Shown one piece after another: positions 1,787 through 62,197 of a DNA stretch of 64,000 bases. The notes beneath the pieces are model-generated. The model was given only the letters and a program-made list of their open reading frames with translations, searched no databases and was not told the DNA's origin. Position numbers and translations under genes: made by a program. How positions within the stretch are numbered: the stretch's first letter is position 1; every line of letters starts with the position of its first letter. Source of the DNA: a bacterium (GTDB lineage: Bacteria > Patescibacteriota > Patescibacteriia > SG8-24); the NCBI GenBank assembly GCA_043825985.1, contig JBDRRB010000018.1:16934-80933 (forward strand), read 5' to 3'.

Positions 1787-1904
1787 AGGTTTAAACGGCA
1801 CTGATTAACAGACCGATCATGGCAGGTATATTTTTCGAAGAAAACAAGAAGGCGGACCACATCGGTCCGCCTTCTGCGTCTCGAACGCGAGTTCGAACGC
1901 CCGA

Positions 1905-2330
1905 CTACTTCAGAGTGATCTTGGCGCCGGCCTCCTCGAGCTTCTTCTTCCACTCCTGGGCCTGTTCCTTGGCCACGCCCTCCTGGAGGACCTTCGGGGC
2001 GCTGTCGACGACACCCTTGGCGTCGGCGAGGCCCATCTGGGTCAGCTCGCGGATCGCCTTGATGACGCCGATCTTGTTCGAACCGGCCTCGGTGATCTCG
2101 ACGTCGAACGAAGACTTCTCGTCCTCGGCGGCGGCGTCGCCACCGACGGCCGGAGCGGCACCGGCGAAGGCCATCATCGGAGCGGCGGCCGAAACGCCGA
2201 ACTTCTCCTCGAGGACCTTGACCAGCTCGGCCAGATCCAGCACGGACATCTTCTCGATGCTGCCGACGAGGTCCTTGAACTTGGCCGGGGCCTCAACCTC
2301 CTTCTTCTCGTCCTGATTCTCTTCCGACAT
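1905..2330 (-). CDS. rplL: 50S ribosomal protein L7/L12
   Basis: The C-terminal domain ([20 protein letters not shown]...EAGAKITLK) and Ala-rich hinge are characteristic of L7/L12. Confidence 0.95.
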
Positions 2331-13473: not shown

Positions 13474-14913
13474 TCAATCCGCCGCCGGACCGAAGAACCG
13501 GGCGTTCTCGCGCACCAGCCAGTCCTTCAGCTCGCGCGTGGCCACCACGTCGTCGCGGTTGTACTCGACGATGCTGTCGAGTGCGGCCCGGTCCCCCGTC
13601 TCCAGCCAGCGCTCGTAGACGGCGACCGACTCCCCGCCGCCGGCGATCTCGCCCTGCCGGTCGAAGCCGATGTACTTGCCGATGTCCTTGATGCCGTAGA
13701 AGTAGAGTGGCAGCACCACGCTGTCCTTGACCGTCTCGTTCAGGTCGACCAGCCGCGACCGGAACGTGTCCAGCCCGGCCGACCCGCCGTAGCGAGACTC
13801 GAGGGCGTTAAGTCGGACCAGCTCGAAGGTGCCGAAATGGTAGACCGCATAGTCGCCGGGCAGCCCGGACAGCCAGCGCAGGAACTCGCGCCACATCCCC
13901 TCCTCGCCCTCGGGCGACTCGGCCAGCTGACGCTCGTACCTCTCGCCGGAACCGTCGCGGACCAGGAAGCCGAACAGGTAGTCCACGCCGCGCAGCGGAT
14001 CGCTCTCGATGTCGAAGAAGATCTCGGTCGGAGACTCGGGCAGGCTGACCGGACGGCGGAAGACATGCTGACGGTCGATGAGCGCCGCGGCCTGAAGCTT
14101 GGCCCGCCGCAGCAGGTCGAGCTTGATGTCGCGGTTGCGGCCGTGCACCTCGTCCGGGTCCATGTCCGCCGCATCCTCGACCGACCGGATGCCCAGCTCG
14201 CGCAGCTGCTCCAGCGTCTTGGCCTTGATGTTGTAGAGCAGCGTAATGTCGTTCGTGCTCTCGGCCAGGGCGATGCACTCGGAGAACCACGGCGACACGC
14301 GGCAGCCGGACGACAGCCGCGGTCCGGGCCGGCGGCCGGACAGCAGCTCGCGCAGCTCGCCGAGCACCCGCCGGTAGAGCTCCTCGACCTCGTCCAGCTG
14401 GCAGCCGATGCGCACGCCGCTGGCGTTCAGTATGTAGCCGAACTCCGGCCGGGCCCCCTGCACCCGTTCCAGCAGGTCGCCGTACATGGCCAGCTGCAGC
14501 CGCATGGCGTCGGTGATCCGTTCGGCGCTCTTGATTTCCGTCGGCTCGTAGGAATACGAGCCGTACCTGGACGGCCGGCCGTCGCGCCGCTCAAGCAGGT
14601 CCGGCTCGCCGATCAGGTCGCCGTCCCTGAGCAGGCCGTGATAGATTCGTTCCGTGCCGGCGGCCATCAGCTCCTGGGTGCGGGCAAAGCGCGCGTCCTC
14701 GTCGCCGTCGCCGACCGGCTCGTACTCAAGCCCAGCCAGCAGCCGCTCCTCGTGCAGCAGCCCCCGCTCCAGGAGCAGGCCATGGAAGCGGGACGGCTCG
14801 GTCCGCCGGGACCGGTCGCCAAAACGGTCGAACCACAGCCAGTGGTTACAGGTGAAGTACTTGATGAACATCCCGGCGCTGATCCGGGGCGGTTGTTCTT
14901 GTCGGTTAGTCAT
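13474..14913 (-). CDS. RecB-family nuclease (COG2251/TM0106-like: Cas4-like PD-(D/E)xK domain plus RNase-H-like domain)
   Basis: N-terminal Cys/Trp-containing segment (YFTCNHWLWFD) and SYSYEPTEIKS...Y PD-(D/E)xK-like core. C-terminal IFFDIESD... RNase-H/DnaQ-like motif. Start uncertain (14913 or 14871). Confidence 0.6.
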   Translation of the reverse strand: MTNRQEQPPRISAGMFIKYFTCNHWLWFDRFGDRSRRTEPSRFHGLLLERGLLHEERLLAGLEYEPVGDGDEDARFARTQELMAAGTERIYHGLLRDGDLIGEPDLLERRDGRPSRYGSYSYEPTEIKSAERITDAMRLQLAMYGDLLERVQGARPEFGYILNASGVRIGCQLDEVEELYRRVLGELRELLSGRRPGPRLSSGCRVSPWFSECIALAESTNDITLLYNIKAKTLEQLRELGIRSVEDAADMDPDEVHGRNRDIKLDLLRRAKLQAAALIDRQHVFRRPVSLPESPTEIFFDIESDPLRGVDYLFGFLVRDGSGERYERQLAESPEGEEGMWREFLRWLSGLPGDYAVYHFGTFELVRLNALESRYGGSAGLDTFRSRLVDLNETVKDSVVLPLYFYGIKDIGKYIGFDRQGEIAGGGESVAVYERWLETGDRAALDSIVEYNRDDVVATRELKDWLVRENARFFGPAAD

Positions 14914-14989
14914 GTTTCGAGGAATCGATGTAATGAATGATCCCAGCACCAGCGGACTTCTGGTCGGGATCCACCTTCGCTAAAGCTAT

Positions 14990-15395
14990 GGTGGACAGGT
15001 GCAGTGTGCCGACCTAGGACAAATCCACGCAGGTTCTGGGCGGGACCCGCCTCCGCCCTTCGACTTCACTACGGGCGGGGCAAGTGTTATGTACTCGGTT
15101 TCACACGCCAGCGGACTTCAGGTTGAGATGATATGTGCCGGTCTGGGGCGAGTCACGCGAAGAAACCATCGGCAGGTTCTGGGCGGGACCCGCCTCCGCC
15201 CTTCGACTTCACTCAGGGATACGGGCGGACAAGTGTCATGTGCCGACACCCTGCATCTCAACATCAGTGGGCTTCGGACGGGATGCGATGTGCCCGGCTG
15301 GACCGAACGACGAAGCGAAACGTACTGAAAACGTACGTTGAGCTAGGAGCGAGGGAAGCCGGACGCAGCGCGCCCGATCCGGAGACCACTTATCT
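14990..15395. repeat. Nested intergenic repeat array: 42-nt exact direct repeat (15029-15070, 15172-15213) plus modules of the dispersed structured element (copy A 15271-15392)
   Basis: Exact duplicate gcaggttctgggcgggacccgcctccgcccttcgacttcact. Recurring (a)tgtgccg motifs. Copy A core atgcgatgtgcc...aacgtac-tgaaaac-gtacgtt...gcagcgcgcccgatcc with a pairing closing helix cttcgga/tccggag. Confidence 0.7.
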
Positions 15396-16646
15396 TTACT
15401 CGTACTTCAAGGCGGAGATGGGGTCCAATTCCGCCGCCTTCCTCGCCGGATACGCGCCAAACACCATGCCGATGACCATGGCCACGAGCAGGGCCGCCAG
15501 GAAGGACGGCAGGGACACGGCGTACTGGACGTCGAAGCCGGTATACCTGGCGTAGGCGATGACCGCAACCGTCAGGACCGTGCCGGACAGCCCGCCCAGG
15601 GCACCGCCGGCCGTGGTCAGGATGACCGCCTCGGCCAGGAACTGCTGCCAGATGACCGCATTCCGGGCGCCGAGTGCCTTGCGCAGTCCGACCTCGCGGA
15701 CGCGCTCGGTGACCGAAACCAGCATGATGTTCATGATGCCGATGCCGCCGACCAGGAGCGAGATCGCGGCCAGCAGGCCGAGCAGGATGGTGATGGCGTT
15801 CGTCACCGTGCCGATCGTCTCCATCACCTCGGTATATGTATGCACCATGAAGTCGTCCTTGTCCGGGTCAGTGATGTCATGCCGCCGCCGCAGCACGGCC
15901 GAGGCCTCCTCGGAGACCGGATCGATGTACCGCTTGTCGGAGACGATCAGGTCTATCTCCTGCACGTACTCGTCGCCGGACAGCCGCTTCTGCATCAGCT
16001 TGAGCGGCATCAGGACGATGGTGTCGAAGTCCATCGGACCGAACACGCCGCGCGGCTCGAGCACACCGACGACCTGGAGGTTCAGCCCCTTGAGGCGGAC
16101 CTTCTGGCCGATCGGGTCAGACTCGCCGAACAGGTGCTCGGCCACCTTGCTGCCGAGCACGATCACCGGCGTCATCGACTTCTCCTCGCGCTCGCTGAAG
16201 ATCCGGCCGGCGCCGATCTCGGCCTGCAGGTCGAACGACATGTAGTTGGCGGTCGTGCCGAAGACCAGTGACCGGTACTCGCTGTCGCGGAATGACACGA
16301 AGGCCTGGCTGGTGTCGAAGGCCACCGCCTCGAGCACGTGCGGCAGGGACCGGAGCGCCTCGGCGTCGTCGTAGGTGATCGAGACGACCTCGGCGGCGGA
16401 GAACTGCGAGGTGATCGCGCCCTGGTCCGACAGTCCGGGGACGGTGGCGTTGATGGTCACGAAGTTCTTTCCGAACTGCTCGACCTGGGCCAGGATGTAG
16501 CTCTTCAGGCCGAAGCCGAGGGAGACGATCAGGGTGACCGAAAAGACGCCGATGGTCACGCCCAGGAGCGACAGCACGGTGCGCAGGCGGTTGCGGCGAA
16601 GGTTCCTGAGCGCCAGTCCGACGGTATTGCGATAGGCGTGCGGCAT
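15396..16646 (-). CDS. ABC transporter permease, FtsX/MacB-type
   Basis: N-terminal TM, large periplasmic domain, C-terminal 3-TM FtsX domain. Confidence 0.85.
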   Translation of the reverse strand: MPHAYRNTVGLALRNLRRNRLRTVLSLLGVTIGVFSVTLIVSLGFGLKSYILAQVEQFGKNFVTINATVPGLSDQGAITSQFSAAEVVSITYDDAEALRSLPHVLEAVAFDTSQAFVSFRDSEYRSLVFGTTANYMSFDLQAEIGAGRIFSEREEKSMTPVIVLGSKVAEHLFGESDPIGQKVRLKGLNLQVVGVLEPRGVFGPMDFDTIVLMPLKLMQKRLSGDEYVQEIDLIVSDKRYIDPVSEEASAVLRRRHDITDPDKDDFMVHTYTEVMETIGTVTNAITILLGLLAAISLLVGGIGIMNIMLVSVTERVREVGLRKALGARNAVIWQQFLAEAVILTTAGGALGGLSGTVLTVAVIAYARYTGFDVQYAVSLPSFLAALLVAMVIGMVFGAYPARKAAELDPISALKYE

Positions 16647-44399: not shown

Positions 44400-44871
44400 T
44401 ATACAAACTTTTTTAAAAAAGCCGAACTCTCGAGGTTGAGAAAACAATAGTAAGGTTTAAACCGGAATCCGGTTCAATCGTTTCTGGATCCCGGATCTCC
44501 TTCCCTCCGGTCAGTCGTCCGGGATGACAGGCTAGGGGGCTGGTCAGTCGTCCGGGATGACAATAACTGTTGTCATGGCAAGCAGAAAAAGCAGCAGTGA
44601 TCAGAAAAACAAGCAGCCCTTGGACGGGAGGCGATGTACCGATCGAAAAACAAAGCAGGCCACAGATTGGACCCACCTCCACCAAGACTTCGGTGGGCAG
44701 GTGAAGTGTGTCCTAACCGGTCCCGGAAAATGAAACAGCCCTTGGACGGGATGCGATGTGCCTGCTTGGAGGAAATCGTACGACGAGGCGTACTAGTGCA
44801 ATACGTCGAGTAAACGATTTCCGAAAGCTGGTGCAGCGCGCCCGATCCAAGGGCTGCCATTCCTTGACGGT
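44400..44871. repeat. Repeat-dense spacer: 21-nt direct repeat (ggtcagtcgtccgggatgaca x2), two 5' modules of the structured element (44617, 44739), and copy D (44737-44858) ending 14 nt from the tsf stop
   Basis: cagcccttggacggga[gt]gcgatgt[ag]cc occurs twice. Copy D closing helix cagcccttgga/tccaagggctg is a perfect 11 bp. Conserved gtgcagcgcgcccgatcc 3' core. Confidence 0.65.
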
Positions 44872-45459
44872 CTAGAGAGCGAAACGAATGAAGCGTCTAA
44901 TCTGCATGTTCTCGCCGATCTTGGCGATATTGTTCTTGAGATGGTCCTGGACGGTCAGGTCCTCGTCCTTGATGAACCGCTGATTAAGCAGACAGACATC
45001 CTGACGGTACTTATCCAACTTACCCTCGACGATCTTGGCGATGACGTCGGCCGGCTTGCCGGAACCGGCGAACTCCTCGGCTGCCAGCTCGCGTTCCTTC
45101 TCCAGGACGTCGGCCGGTATGTCGTCCGCGGTCAGGTACAGCGGATTGGCCGCCGCAACGTGCATAGCCAGGTCATGAACGAATTCCTTGAACTGCTCGT
45201 TGAGAGCGACAAAATCCGTCTCACACAGCACCTCGACCATGGCGCCGACCTTGCCCGTACCATGAATGTAGGCATGAACCAGCCCTTCCTTGACCTCGCG
45301 GTCGCCTTTCTTGTCGGCCTTGGCGATGCCCTTCTTGCGGAGGATGTCCGCCGCCTTGTCGATGTCTCCGCCGGCCTCGTCGAGGGCGGTCTTGCAGTCG
45401 ACCATGCCGGCGTTGGTGCGGGCACGGAGTTCGGCGATGGTCCTGGTGTCAACGGCCAT
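44872..45459 (-). CDS. tsf: Elongation factor Ts (short form)
   Basis: N-terminal UBA-like IAELRARTNAGMVDCKTALDEAGGDIDKA and the dimerisation core. 195 aa. Immediately downstream of rpsB. Confidence 0.9.
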   Translation of the reverse strand: MAVDTRTIAELRARTNAGMVDCKTALDEAGGDIDKAADILRKKGIAKADKKGDREVKEGLVHAYIHGTGKVGAMVEVLCETDFVALNEQFKEFVHDLAMHVAAANPLYLTADDIPADVLEKERELAAEEFAGSGKPADVIAKIVEGKLDKYRQDVCLLNQRFIKDEDLTVQDHLKNNIAKIGENMQIRRFIRFAL

Positions 45460-53792: not shown

Positions 53793-54109
53793 AATCATGT
53801 CATTGCGAGCGAGTGCGGCGAGCGTGGAAATCCCGACCGAAGCACAGACCCCGACGGGATCATCACGTTACGTCGATTCCTGCCTGCCCCGCCTGCCGGC
53901 GTGCAGGAACAGGCAGGCGCTCCTCCATTCGTGACGAGAACATCCCCGTGGATTCCCGATACGTCGTTCGCGAACGACGTATCCCGCCGGAGCCTGCCCT
54001 CGCGAAGGCGGGGGGCGGTAATGACATGCGGTTAGATGAAAAACAAACCGACCAGGACTCTCTGGTCGGACGTAACTACTATGGCAAGCAGGTTCTGGAT
54101 GGAATTCAT

Positions 54110-54250
54110 CTTAAAACAAAGCGGACTTCAGGTTGGATGAAGTGTGCTTGGCTGGAGCGATCCGTGCAGCGAAACGTACTAAGAACGTACGTTGAGCAAA
54201 CGGATCGCGAAGCCAAGTGCAATTCGCCAAGCTGGAGTCCGCCCAATCTA
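54110..54250. repeat. Structured repeat element, copy B (diverged)
   Basis: gcggact...agtccgc 7-bp closing helix, atgaagtgtgc core, gcgaaacgtac-taagaa-cgtacgttgagc hairpin, gtgcaattcgcc 3' core. Overlaps the stop codon of 54248..55249. Confidence 0.6.
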
Positions 54251-55249
54251 ATCCTCCGGCGCAAGGTAGATGGCCGGATCGAACAGGTTCAACTCCGGCC
54301 TAACTTCGACTCGGGTCACGCTCGGCAGGTCATTGAACCAGCTGGCCTCGACAGTCCTGGTCTCGCCGGCCTTCAGCCCGCTCGCCACGACCCGGTTGGC
54401 CGCCACTACCCGTTCGCCGCTCAGCAGGGCCACCATGAACGGCACCGAAACGTAGCCGTAGGCGGTGTTGTTGGTGACGCTGAAACGGGCCCGGCTGACC
54501 GGCAGCGACGACTTCGGGTCCGGCGGCATGAACTCCGGATCGGCGATGACGAAATCCAGCCGGCTGGTCGCCCAAGTCTGGTAGTCGGGACGGACGACAT
54601 GCCCGTCAACCCGATGCCAGGACAGGTCGACTATCTCGAAGCTGGGGCTCGGCCGTCGGTCGGCGTCGACCGCCAGCTGATACAGGTAGCGGGAGTCGGC
54701 CGGCAGGAGATATCCGTGCTGCACGCGGTCCGGCAGCCCGGAATCGACGAATCGGTAGTCGAACTCGACCCACCAGCGACGGTTCGGGTTGGCCACCCGG
54801 GCCAGCAGGTCGTACTTGCCCTCGCCGGACGTCAGCACGATCGGCGTCTGGACGGACAGGCGCTCCGGCATGGAGGCCTCGCGGAATCCGGCGTAGTCGG
54901 TCAGATTCTGGGTCAGGAGGGCGGTTCCGGCCCGCTCCCGCACGCCGGACCCGAAGAACCAGTCGGCGAAACCCCAGACGCCGTAGGCCAGAAGAGAAAA
55001 TCCGACCACTGCCAGCAGCACGGTCAGCCCGGTCTTGAGCTGCGCCTTGTGATGAAGCCACCACAGGCCCCACCTGAGCTGATCCTCCGAAAGACGGTCA
55101 TCGTTCTCGATTGGTGTCTCCATATAATATAGGTAGCCGGTTAACGACTCCATGATAGCAGACTCGGGCGGCCGGGCCGAGAGACTTGACCGAGACCGAC
55201 GGCTGTGTTGTACAGGCCGGCTGTGACCTCTCCTCGAGAGGCACTGCAA
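54248..55249 (-). CDS. Hypothetical membrane protein
   Basis: N-terminal TM region (GLTVLLAVVGFSLLAYGVWGF) and a ~250-aa extracytoplasmic domain. No recognisable motif. Confidence 0.5.
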   Translation of the reverse strand: MQCLSRRGHSRPVQHSRRSRSSLSARPPESAIMESLTGYLYYMETPIENDDRLSEDQLRWGLWWLHHKAQLKTGLTVLLAVVGFSLLAYGVWGFADWFFGSGVRERAGTALLTQNLTDYAGFREASMPERLSVQTPIVLTSGEGKYDLLARVANPNRRWWVEFDYRFVDSGLPDRVQHGYLLPADSRYLYQLAVDADRRPSPSFEIVDLSWHRVDGHVVRPDYQTWATSRLDFVIADPEFMPPDPKSSLPVSRARFSVTNNTAYGYVSVPFMVALLSGERVVAANRVVASGLKAGETRTVEASWFNDLPSVTRVEVRPELNLFDPAIYLAPED

Positions 55250-60478: not shown

Positions 60479-61024
60479 ATGCCAAAGCAGACAGAAGGAC
60501 GCGGACGCCGCTGGTACGCGATCCACACCGCCTCTGGCTACGAGGAGAACGTCCGTCACAACCTGGAGCAGCGCATCGAGTCGCTGGACATGCGGGAAAA
60601 GATCTTCAACGTGCTGATCCCCAAGGAAAAGAAGATCAAGATCAAGAACGGCAAGCGCAAGGTGGTCGAGGAGAAGATCTTCCCCGGCTACGTGCTGGTC
60701 GAGATGCTCGTGGACGACGCCTCCTGGTACGTGGTCCGCAACACGCCGAACGTGACCGGCTTCATCGGCACCGGCACCATTCCCACTCCCCTGTCCGACG
60801 CCGAGATCAAGGCCCTGCAGAAGCGCATGGGCGTCGAGGAGCCGGAATACAAGATCGACGTCGAGGTCAACTCGCCGGTCGGCATCACCGACGGCCCGTT
60901 CAAGGGCTTCGAGGGCAAGGTGGCCGAAATCGACCAGTCACGCGGCAAGATCAAGGTCCTGGTCTCGATGTTCGGCCGCGAGACGCCGGTCGAGCTGGAC
61001 TTCCTGCAGATCAAGAAGATCTAG
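60479..61024 (+). CDS. nusG: Transcription termination/antitermination factor NusG
   Basis: WYAIHTASGYE NGN domain and C-terminal KOW (GPFKGFEGKVAEID...KIKVLVSMFGRETPVEL). Confidence 0.93.
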   Translation: MPKQTEGRGRRWYAIHTASGYEENVRHNLEQRIESLDMREKIFNVLIPKEKKIKIKNGKRKVVEEKIFPGYVLVEMLVDDASWYVVRNTPNVTGFIGTGTIPTPLSDAEIKALQKRMGVEEPEYKIDVEVNSPVGITDGPFKGFEGKVAEIDQSRGKIKVLVSMFGRETPVELDFLQIKKI

Positions 61025-61063
61025 CCCGGACCGAAACGACGGATAGGCAGCCAACCACAGAAC

Positions 61064-61399
61064 ATGAAAACGTATCCGATGAGGCTGCATCCCGAACCGT
61101 TCGAGCGGATCAGGTCCGGCCAGAAAACCGACGAGCTGCGGCTCAACGATCCCAAGCGGCAGCAAATCCAAGTTGGCGACCGGATCGAGTTCAGCCGACG
61201 GCCCGAATGCACGGAAAAACTGCTGGCCGAAGTCTCCTACCTGAAGCACTACCCGACCTTCGCCGAGATGTACGACGGGGTGAAGGACAGGTATCCGGAG
61301 GCCAGCCGCGACTCGTTCGTCGCCGGCATGCACCAGTACTACCCGCCCGAGGAGGAAGCCGAGTTCGGCACGGTCGAGATCGGCCTGCGAGTGGTCTAG
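61064..61399 (+). CDS. ASCH-domain protein
   Basis: RLHPEPFERIRSGQKTDELRLNDPKRQQIQVGDRIEF is a small beta-barrel ASCH/PUA-like pattern. Inserted between nusG and rplK. Confidence 0.6.
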   Translation: MKTYPMRLHPEPFERIRSGQKTDELRLNDPKRQQIQVGDRIEFSRRPECTEKLLAEVSYLKHYPTFAEMYDGVKDRYPEASRDSFVAGMHQYYPPEEEAEFGTVEIGLRVV

Positions 61400-61417
61400 C
61401 CAGAAACCAAACCAACG

Positions 61418-61450
61418 AGTGCCAGAACCAAAATCTGGCACTTTTGTTTC
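61418..61450 (+). terminator. Intrinsic terminator after the ASCH gene
   Basis: gtgccaga-accaaaat-ctggcac hairpin followed by TTTTGTTTC. Confidence 0.6.
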
Positions 61451-61505
61451 GGTTAAACCAAAAAGAAGGCAAATCGACCGAAAACTTGGCAGCTAAACCA
61501 ACCCC

Positions 61506-61534
61506 TTGCTAAAACCGCCCAAAACCGCTAATCT
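61506..61534 (+). promoter_or_regulatory. Sigma70-like promoter for rplK (TTGCTA-N17-TAATCT)
   Basis: -35 at 61506-61511, exact 17-nt spacer, -10 TAATCT at 61529-61534. A ~237-nt leader follows. Confidence 0.45.
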
Positions 61535-61639
61535 TCGCACGCATACGGTGGGTCCCCGGACTCGGGACCGCTTCTCTCCGTAGACAAACGGAAACCCCGC
61601 TTCTTAAAGCGGAGCCGTCCAATTCATTCCAAACATCGA

Positions 61640-61762
61640 CGGGCACTGGGCGGGATGCAGTGTGCCCCGCTGGACCGAGCGACGACGCGAGACGTACCCA
61701 AAATGTACGGCGAGCTAGGAGCACGGGAAGCGGGGTGCAATGCGCCCGACCCAGTGACCGCA
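61640..61762. repeat. Structured repeat element, copy C, within the rplK 5' leader
   Basis: Closing helix cactggg/cccagtg (perfect 7 bp), junction cggg/(A)/cccg, core atgcagtgtgcc, hairpin gacgtac-ccaaaat-gtacgg, gagctaggagc, gcaatgcgcccga. Ends about 10 nt before the rplK ATG. Confidence 0.65.
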
Positions 61763-61771
61763 TAGAAAAAT

Positions 61772-62197
61772 ATGGCTAAGAAGGTAAAGACACAGATTAA
61801 GCTCCAGATCCCGGCCGGCCAGGCCAACCCAGCGCCGCCAGTCGGTCCGGCCCTCGGTCAGCATGGCCTGAACATCGCCGAGTTCTGCCAGAAGTTCAAC
61901 GCCGCCACCCAGCAGATGATGGGCGACATCACGCCGGTCGTGATCACGGTCTACGAGGACCGGACCTACGACTTCATCCTCAAGACCCCGCCGGCAGCCG
62001 AGCTGCTCAAGAAGGCGGCCGGAGTCAAGAAGGGCTCCGGCAAGCCGCTCTCGGACAAGATCGGTTCCGTCACCAAGGCGCAGGTCCGCGAGATCGCGGA
62101 AAAGAAGCTGGCCGACCTGAACACCGACGACGTGGAGGCCGCCATGCGCACCATCGAGGGCACGGCCCGGCAGATGGGCCTGACAGTCAAGGAATAA
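61772..62197 (+). CDS. rplK: 50S ribosomal protein L11
   Basis: [35 protein letters not shown]... is the canonical L11 N-terminus. Confidence 0.95.

Follow-up and report, generated by a model that had tools for sequence, protein, structure and literature searches.

The window analysed here, a stretch of 64,000 nucleotides, contains four copies of a dispersed element of ~128 nt that folds into one 44-bp rod with fixed purine-rich internal loops and whose fold is under selection. We give about an even chance to the explanation that the element is a non-autonomous, hairpin-forming dispersed repeat family of Patescibacteria, resembling REPINs and ERIC, which uses a single-stranded intermediate and is partly retained by the host at gene ends.

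A covariance model (R1), built from an alignment of the four window copies (A1) that was obtained without trouble, was used to scan the window. The scan confirms the places given in the initial annotation, with all copies on the + strand and exactly four of full length in 64 kb. The scores range from 125.7 to 137.4 bits:

15266..15393, + strand: copy 1, R1 score 136.3 bits
44734..44861, + strand: copy 2, R1 score 128.4 bits
54120..54246, + strand: copy 3, R1 score 125.7 bits
61638..61765, + strand: copy 4, R1 score 137.4 bits, in sense orientation

The best unrelated match in the window scores 13.8 bits (E 0.6), and the reverse strand of the four sites scores 30–38 bits under the same model. 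The core motif GGATGNNNTGTGCNNNNNTGGA occurs four times in the window, compared with 0.00 expected from 100 shuffles. The motif GAGCTAGGAGC, which had been taken as general to the copies, is present only in copies 1 and 4. Pairwise identity among the window copies is only 53–76%, and the closest match of copy 4 overall is a copy from the Ga0265297 metagenome (80%).

Gene calls and domains agree with the earlier placement of copies 1–3 beside minus-strand stop codons and of copy 4 in the rplK 5' leader. Specifically, the distance between the end of the copy and the stop codon of its minus-strand neighbour is 2 nt for copy 1 (MacB/FtsX-type permease gene, 15396..16646), 10 nt for copy 2 (tsf, 44872..45459; EF_TS domain), and 1 nt for copy 3 (gene with no Pfam match, 54248..55249). 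The end of copy 4 lies 6 nt upstream of the ATG start codon of rplK (61772; L11 domains). The usual gene block around rplK is nusG-rplKAJL. This block is broken up in the present genome, because rplL (1905-2330) lies 60 kb from rplK on the opposite strand and an ASCH-domain gene (61064-61399) with its own terminator-like site is interposed between nusG and rplK (60479-62197 region). The window (1-64000) contains no tRNA gene, despite the presence of nusG, rplK, rplL, and tsf.

Pattern scans of 185,579 species genomes and a metagenome collection, in which true copies score 46–126 bits, identified the element at further loci, hereinafter designated by L numbers. The carriers are MAGs labelled Parcubacteria, Patescibacteria or Uhrbacteria and unlabelled metagenome contigs. 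Two further carriers bear other labels, L006 (Vicinamibacterales) and L012 (Gammaproteobacteria), and both have good copies; L012 matches the Parcubacteria contig L016 at the khpA site, with rods that are 86% identical. L006 and L012 may be Patescibacteria DNA placed in the wrong genome bin. These two off-label contigs aside, the scans found the element only in Patescibacteria-type contigs. Ca. Uhrbacteria RIFOXYC2_FULL_47_19 has 3–4 copies in 8 kb of its str/S10 region, and the EF-Ts encoded in the window is 86% identical to the protein of this carrier genome and 100% identical to a protein of a MAG labelled 'bacterium'. The neighbours of the element are enriched for translation genes (rpsG, fusA, rpsJ, rplK, rplL, tsf, rpmB, gatB, and the khpA (rpsP) operon). 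Searches of phage, plasmid, and viral-contig collections gave nothing similar to the element, and no prior description was found in the literature on Patescibacteria, the candidate phyla radiation, and Uhrbacteria.

Covariation in the four copies and in a set of 27 overwhelmingly supports the earlier proposal that the fold is under selection. RNAalifold folds the four window copies into one 44-pair rod, with two-sided changes in 23 pairs and an energy of −67.4 kcal/mol on the + strand versus −49.6 kcal/mol on the − strand. The 27 distinct copies were aligned to the model (A6), a fitted alignment whose counts lean towards structure; in it, 94.5% of pair cells are standard pairs, compared with 76.7% after shuffling and 29–42% with the partners slid. 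Two-sided changes occur in 37 of the 44 pairs, and none of 500 shuffles reached any of the measures. A MAFFT-based fold of the four window copies agrees with the A6 fold. The rod is a single continuous fold, and neither arm makes a hairpin of its own.

The pairing also defines the folding strand. Across the 27 copies there are 97 G-U/U-G cells and 10 A-C/C-A cells (51 versus 10 at variable pairs). Because G-U outnumbers A-C about 10:1, the + strand of the element is the folding strand. With RNA parameters it is stabler than the complementary strand in 25 of 27 copies, and with DNA parameters in all 27; the mean energies are −77 versus −62 kcal/mol (RNA) and −41 versus −34 kcal/mol (DNA).

Several unpaired or non-canonical features of the rod are conserved. 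A bulged A in GGG-A-UG is invariant, a purine-purine mismatch alternates between A-G and G-A in a covarying manner, a 3x2 internal loop GGA/GA is conserved, and so is a tandem G-A loop, CGA/GAG, beneath the apical CGUAC stem. The bulged A that had been described near the base holds for part of the family; in the rest, the position is G or U, or the bulge is absent. The foot of the rod reads RGCRG...CYGC in nearly all 27 copies, and copy 1 alone has GTGG...CCAC. The sequence is compatible with either RNA or single-stranded DNA as the selected molecule and cannot decide between them. The tandem G-A pairs, the covarying A-G/G-A mismatch, and the ~10% share of G-U resemble a functional RNA more than a DNA hairpin bound by a transposase, a point against the repeat-family explanation.

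At ~20 of 22 judgeable sites, the 3' end of the folding strand is the end that faces a convergent gene's stop codon or terminator. Copy 4 and L001 are the exceptions and end 5–6 nt before the start codons of rplK and gatB. Copy 4, L001, L022, L023, and L031 are in sense orientation; most other copies are antisense, including those in the str and S10 operons, and the antisense copies too have G-U, not A-C, on the folding strand. The folding strand is the C-rich strand at roughly 21 of 25 sites, with L056, L011, and L013 as exceptions. GC skew in element orientation is negative at 20 of the 22 loci listed, and likewise for genes called on both strands; in Pfam-verified genes, GC skew in coding orientation is ~0.00 on the strand of the rod versus +0.083 on the opposite strand, a polarity confounded by gene-specific composition. 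A link between rod orientation and replication direction is suggestive only. If it is real, the C-rich-strand bias would be opposite to that of IS608-type elements.

Within the window, terminator-like sites are located beside copies 2, 3, and 4:

44652..44679, − strand: terminator-like hairpin and T-run downstream of copy 2 (consensus scan; 10 pairs, 4 G-C; moderate evidence)
54048..54069, − strand: terminator-like hairpin and T-run downstream of copy 3 (8 pairs, 6 G-C, then TTTGTTTTT)
61417-61443, + strand: terminator-like site after the ASCH gene, upstream of copy 4 (scan)

Copies 2 and 3 are each flanked by a minus-strand stop codon on one side and, ~50 nt beyond the copy on the other, by a minus-strand terminator-like site; mRNA of the neighbouring gene is therefore expected to contain the strand complementary to the folding strand. 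For copy 2, the position of the terminator-like site implies that the tsf transcript would cross the copy in antisense. Because a + strand terminator-like site follows the ASCH gene, the rplK promoter probably lies upstream of copy 4. The scanner reported no intrinsic terminator (a short G+C-rich hairpin followed by a U-run) at the elements themselves, the sites beside copies 2, 3, and 4 being separate. The + strand shows no promoter-like site upstream of or near the four window copies, and no shared promoter was seen by eye in ~25 upstream flanks or in the 5' segment common to recent copies. In five copies a terminator-like hairpin with a T-run abuts the 5' end of the rod, leaving no space for a promoter. 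On the folding strand, a hairpin and a T-run come after the rod in many copies.

Two hairpins recur upstream of rods elsewhere. One is terminator-like (AAACTCCCCGG...CCGGGGTATCTT) and is found 5' of several rods in the Ga0265297 metagenome. A second hairpin, CCCCGGGC-N4-GCCCGGGG with TTTT, lies directly 5' of the rod in L036 (2419-2474), L030 (1364-1419), and L011 (5412-5440), with nearly the same sequence in two different organisms. Upstream of it, L036 and L030 have a GGGGTTC...GAACCCC pairing that would compete with this second hairpin in an attenuator-like manner. The second hairpin may be part of the element or a preferred insertion target. The first hairpin is one of the short repeat families, of 35–90 nt with 85–100% identity, that the Ga0265297 contigs share besides the rod (L022 1778-1857, L031 3930-4009, and L034 11718-11777; L026 747-832 and 5048-5132, and L036 1488-1580).

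The closing helices had been considered unrelated between copies. Instead, they are diverged homologues of one stem theme, CcCUGGa/uCCAGgG, and occupy the same columns throughout. Four variants are present in the window, and further ones are GGCGAGCCCUGGA/UCCAGGGCUCGC in one metagenome and GGCUUUCAG/UGGAAGCC in Uhrbacteria; among recent copies elsewhere the helix is identical. Because it keeps the same columns and one theme and is identical in recent copies, the closing helix belongs to the element and is not a split host terminator. Very little probability is thus left for the idea that a conserved core was inserted into the loops of pre-existing terminator hairpins, the closing helix being the split terminator of the neighbouring gene. 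T-rich tracts do follow copies 2 and 3 on the minus strand (TTTCATTTT and TTTGTTTT), but a T-run at that position is missing in most other copies, and copies 2 and 3 have minus-strand terminator-like sites of their own ~50 nt further on. Insertion into terminator loops was rejected on the homology of the closing helices between copies and across genomes.

The initial annotation could not match the element to tRNA, tmRNA, RNase P, SRP RNA, or hammerhead and twister cores. A comparison with Rfam 15 gives no match either: no family reaches the gathering score in the whole window. With E up to 10, copies 1 and 4 give only chance-level matches (E > 2), and 11 related loci give only tRNAs. Comparisons by eye led us to drop a kink-turn (the 3-nt bulge beside the G-A pairs is absent), a sarcin-ricin loop (UGGA/GAA is incompatible with AGUA/GAA), and 4.5S RNA (the common short words are not collinear). 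Likeness to an L1-binding leader, 6S RNA, Y RNA, bridge RNA, and TnpB/IscB guide RNAs was considered in the same way and dropped. A ribosomal-protein leader of the L1/L11 operon, which would be a single structure confined to the rplK-rplA leader in different species, was rejected because the rod is also found after tsf, rpsJ, rpsG, fusA, rplL, rpmB, khpA, clpB, and transporter genes.

A short open reading frame would start at an invariant ATG in GGATG, which is present in 26 of 27 aligned copies (GAATG in L018:5441). In copy 4 and the recent metagenome copies this frame runs over 36 codons and ends with a stop in the GCATAG/GCATAA tail. There is next to no probability, however, that the element is a small protein-coding or toxin-antitoxin-type locus. 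Copy 2, L026, and L022 stop after 20–21 codons, substitutions track base pairs rather than codons, and insertions and deletions of 1–3 nt in the apical loop put the copies out of frame with one another, on which ground a conserved reading frame was rejected.

The initial annotation had also implied a contrast between the element and repeat or mobile elements. The analysis does not support this contrast, since the family shows recent amplification, presence/absence differences, insertion beside or into resident copies, and remnants, as is typical of REPIN/MITE-type DNA. In the Ga0265297 metagenome, five copies on five contigs are 94–99% identical over 161–196 nt and have unrelated flanks. No target-site duplication or exact transposon end could be defined, and no flanking direct repeats were seen at these five recent copies. 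The tsf 3' spacer, occupied by copy 2 in the window, has no rod in the five closest relatives, where it contains only a terminator and a promoter-like region. Conversely, the rplL 3' spacer has a rod in the syntenic contig L026 and none in the window:

1802..1904, no strand assigned: empty site downstream of rplL (1905..2330, minus strand), with a plain terminator hairpin only

The rpsJ 3' site is filled in five genomes (L018, L005, L044, L045, and L047) and empty in at least four (L050-52, L053, L055, and L056). An orthologous rod at the rpsJ/rplC site is common to L025/L018 and L044. In L045, the rpsJ site holds the first 42 nt of the resident rod, followed by a complete rod that abuts the stop codon (A7); the new rod is self-complementary and belongs to another lineage, with 45–57% identity in paired columns. 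The rpsG/fusA site shows the converse: the old rod is intact in L045, while L018 has a ~35-nt relic and a new copy (A8).

The intervals around these sites have some further peculiarities. The rpsJ-rplC spacer, expected to be a few tens of bases, is 400–760 nt in Uhrbacteria-like genomes, even where there is no rod (L044 955-1555; L045 10348-11105; L050 5668-6196; L053 9801-10207; L056 10345-10811), and one annotation places there an 80-aa ORF with no Pfam match. The fusA-tuf interval of the str operon encodes a 798-823-aa protein (L045 4465-6861 / L046 4390-6861) and a 185-aa protein (L045 7896-8453), neither with a Pfam match. Proteins of 174–189 aa, also lacking a Pfam match, precede tuf in L018, L053, L055, and L056 and are alike in position to the 185-aa protein of L045.

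Remnants are found beside intact copies: L023 has two 5' halves, L034 has one 5' half, and L018 has one 3' half. The remnant is always 5' of the intact copy, as seen in L023 (two), L034, L018 (two), L045, and the window (two, at 14949-15265). In the window, the 315-nt spacer 5' of copy 1 (14949-15265) consists of two diverged tandem units of ~158 nt, each made of the 5' half of a copy-3-like rod and a ~85-nt non-rod segment, the latter common to both units (CAGGTTCTGGGCGGGACCCGCCTCCGCCCTTCGACTTCACT...). The units are visible by alignment only; Tandem Repeats Finder run on 14900-15420 reported nothing. The annotated parts are as follows:

14949..15108, + strand: older tandem unit with a more decayed 5' rod fragment, AGCGGACTTCTGGTCGGGAT...GGTGCAGTGTGCCGACCTAGG (seen by eye and in alignment A9 only; weak)
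15109..15165, + strand: decayed 5' half of a copy-3-like rod (AGCGGACTTCAGGTTGAGATGATATGTGCCGGTCTGGGGCGAGTCACGCGAAG), which opens the second tandem unit (nhmmer 15116-15160 versus model 6-50, E 0.004; A9)

A 491-aa protein (13474-14949) with a C-terminal RNase_H_2 domain (PF13482) and an unannotated N-terminal portion of 300 aa adjoins these remnants; it is not recurrent beside other copies. None of the ~40 neighbouring proteins scanned across ~0.5 Mb was recognised as a transposase, an integrase, a reverse transcriptase, or a nuclease of the HUH or Y1 type, although a trans-acting gene elsewhere in the genome would escape this survey.

Orthologous copies at two site pairs nevertheless keep their pairing. 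Between the orthologues L018:272 and L044:956, 13 of 88 paired positions differ, and the differences include five compensated doubles, a number reached in 0 of 50,000 simulations. Between the orthologues L016 and L012, 13 of 88 paired positions differ as well, with four compensated doubles (P = 1.6e-4). In both comparisons 42 pairs are intact, compared with 34–36 under random substitution. Detection with the model favours intact copies, but such bias cannot create double changes.

These observations fit a repeat family akin to REPINs, ERIC, or Rickettsia palindromic elements, with the following life cycle. Copies would spread within and between genomes via a single-stranded intermediate of one defined strand, and a putative enzyme encoded elsewhere would recognise the fold of that single strand. 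Because the enzyme would recognise the fold, we propose, the fold rather than the sequence is kept along active lineages. New copies are located at gene boundaries, typically such that the folding strand's 3' end adjoins a convergent gene at its stop codon or terminator. Often they lie immediately 3' of a copy already resident, or of another hairpin, and a resident copy displaced in this way then decays by deletion. At least some copies would have been co-opted by the host as gene-end hairpins, since orthologous copies at two site pairs keep pairing via compensating changes. The same compensation in place counts against the repeat-family explanation, as it is not expected of purely selfish fixed copies. 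Further points against it are that no mobilising enzyme was found beside the copies, that neither a target-site duplication nor exact ends could be defined, and that the REP hallmark at the hairpin foot is absent.

The main alternative, which we consider less likely, is that the rods are host-functional structured RNAs whose internal loops are bound by a common protein and whose duplication is occasional and secondary. They would act in cis, from UTRs and intercistronic regions, or be small RNAs whose genes converge with a neighbour. The covariation is as strong as in curated RNA families, G-U is far above A-C, and the tandem sheared-type G-A loops, the covarying purine-purine mismatch, and the invariant bulged A, as well as compensation at orthologous sites, are what such RNAs would show. 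The neighbourhood of translation genes and the hairpin with a T-run that follows many copies on the folding strand point in the same direction, as do the positions of copy 4 and L001 in the 5' leaders of rplK and gatB and of L022, L023, and L031 in sense 3' UTRs; because these five are in sense leaders or 3' UTRs, folding-strand RNA should arise from them. Yet there is no conserved promoter, and five copies leave no room for one. Most copies are antisense to a transcript that demonstrably or probably crosses them, yet G-U is kept on the antisense strand. Moreover, an identity of only 53–76% between paralogues of one genome would be unusual for an RNP RNA that acts in trans. Sites also undergo gain, loss, and overwriting by copies of foreign lineages, and decaying remnants adjoin intact copies.

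It is unlikely, but worth stating, that the rods are a new class of strand-specific structured RNA or single-stranded DNA that has a host role at gene ends in bacteria of the candidate phyla radiation, is the ligand of a conserved protein, and renews itself by mobilisation without the known transposase types. If so, its replication-linked polarity would be opposite to that of IS608-type elements. Highly unlikely, by comparison, are attC-like recombination sites of an integron-like system. attC sites fold as a single strand, have unpaired conserved bases, and lie right after stop codons, where the strand that folds is antisense to the preceding gene. The rods resemble them in size (~60–140 nt), in keeping structure over sequence, in their unpaired conserved bases and post-stop-codon position, and in the antisense orientation of the folding strand to the upstream gene at most sites. 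But the foot of the rod has no RYYYAAC / GTTRRRY boxes (R boxes) and no AAC...GTT pair, the core sequence is conserved across distant genomes, and several copies are sense to or upstream of genes. There are no cassette arrays, the neighbours being core housekeeping genes in conserved operons, and no integrase was found among the neighbours scanned.

Almost no non-coding elements have been described in Patescibacteria, whose genomes are tiny and tightly packed. With 27 distinct copies and 37 covarying pairs, the family can now be defined for RNA and repeat catalogues. Its insertion flush with the ends of core translation genes extends to sites inside the str and S10 ribosomal operons. Replacement by foreign-lineage copies, together with in-place selection on orthologues, makes it a tractable case of the co-option of a selfish repeat. 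A dedicated enzyme or binding protein, if it exists, would be a new piece of Patescibacteria biology. The element is also useful as a marker for assigning contigs to genomes.

Among known systems, the ends of IS200/IS605 elements and their ORF-less derivatives act through hairpins in a strand-specific and replication-linked manner (PMC6006769). Their hairpins are short and subterminal; their active strand is on the lagging-strand template, whereas the folding strand of the rod tends to be C-rich; and neither TnpA nor TnpB was seen among the neighbours of the rods. Rickettsia palindromic elements, Correia elements, and other MITEs are likewise small palindromic repeats that spread in compact or reduced genomes, where they can serve for termination or processing of transcripts. 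The rods are strictly intergenic, unlike Rickettsia palindromic elements, which enter genes in frame. A MITE is recognised by conserved terminal inverted repeats, a target-site duplication, and a related autonomous IS; neither of the first two could be demonstrated for the rod, whose outer stem varies between copies, and no insertion sequence that shares the rod ends was found.

REPINs undergo compensatory hairpin changes, form clusters via insertion into or next to existing copies, persist for long in lineages, and contain no transposase (PMC3116915). Similarly, the rod is a long-persisting, intergenic, multi-copy hairpin of ~100 nt in single-stranded DNA or RNA, without a transposase of its own, whose stem is kept by compensation and which inserts at existing copies. 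The REP hallmark is GT[AG]G located 0–2 nt 5' of the hairpin foot (PMC6006769). The rod family lacks this hallmark and has, in nearly all copies, the foot RGCRG...CYGC. A REPIN consists of two inverted REP units of 20–40 nt, each an imperfect palindrome, and a spacer, whereas the arms of the rod are not two self-palindromic units. The rod core contains G-U pairs, tandem G-A pairs, and a bulged A and is thus markedly asymmetric. REPINs are further recognised by a single-copy RAYT (Y1 HUH) flanked by copies; no RAYT was found among the ~40 neighbouring proteins scanned. The host phylum, Patescibacteria, is different as well.

ERIC/IRU of enterobacteria are imperfect palindromes of ~127 bp that are intergenic, occur in either orientation and partly as orthologous copies, and form a long RNA hairpin in mRNAs. 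To our knowledge, ERIC has no comparable invariant internal loops, and flush placement at gene ends has not been reported for it. There is no sequence similarity between ERIC/IRU and the rods; the likeness is in size, intergenic location, occurrence in both orientations and at some orthologous sites, and long-hairpin behaviour inside mRNAs.
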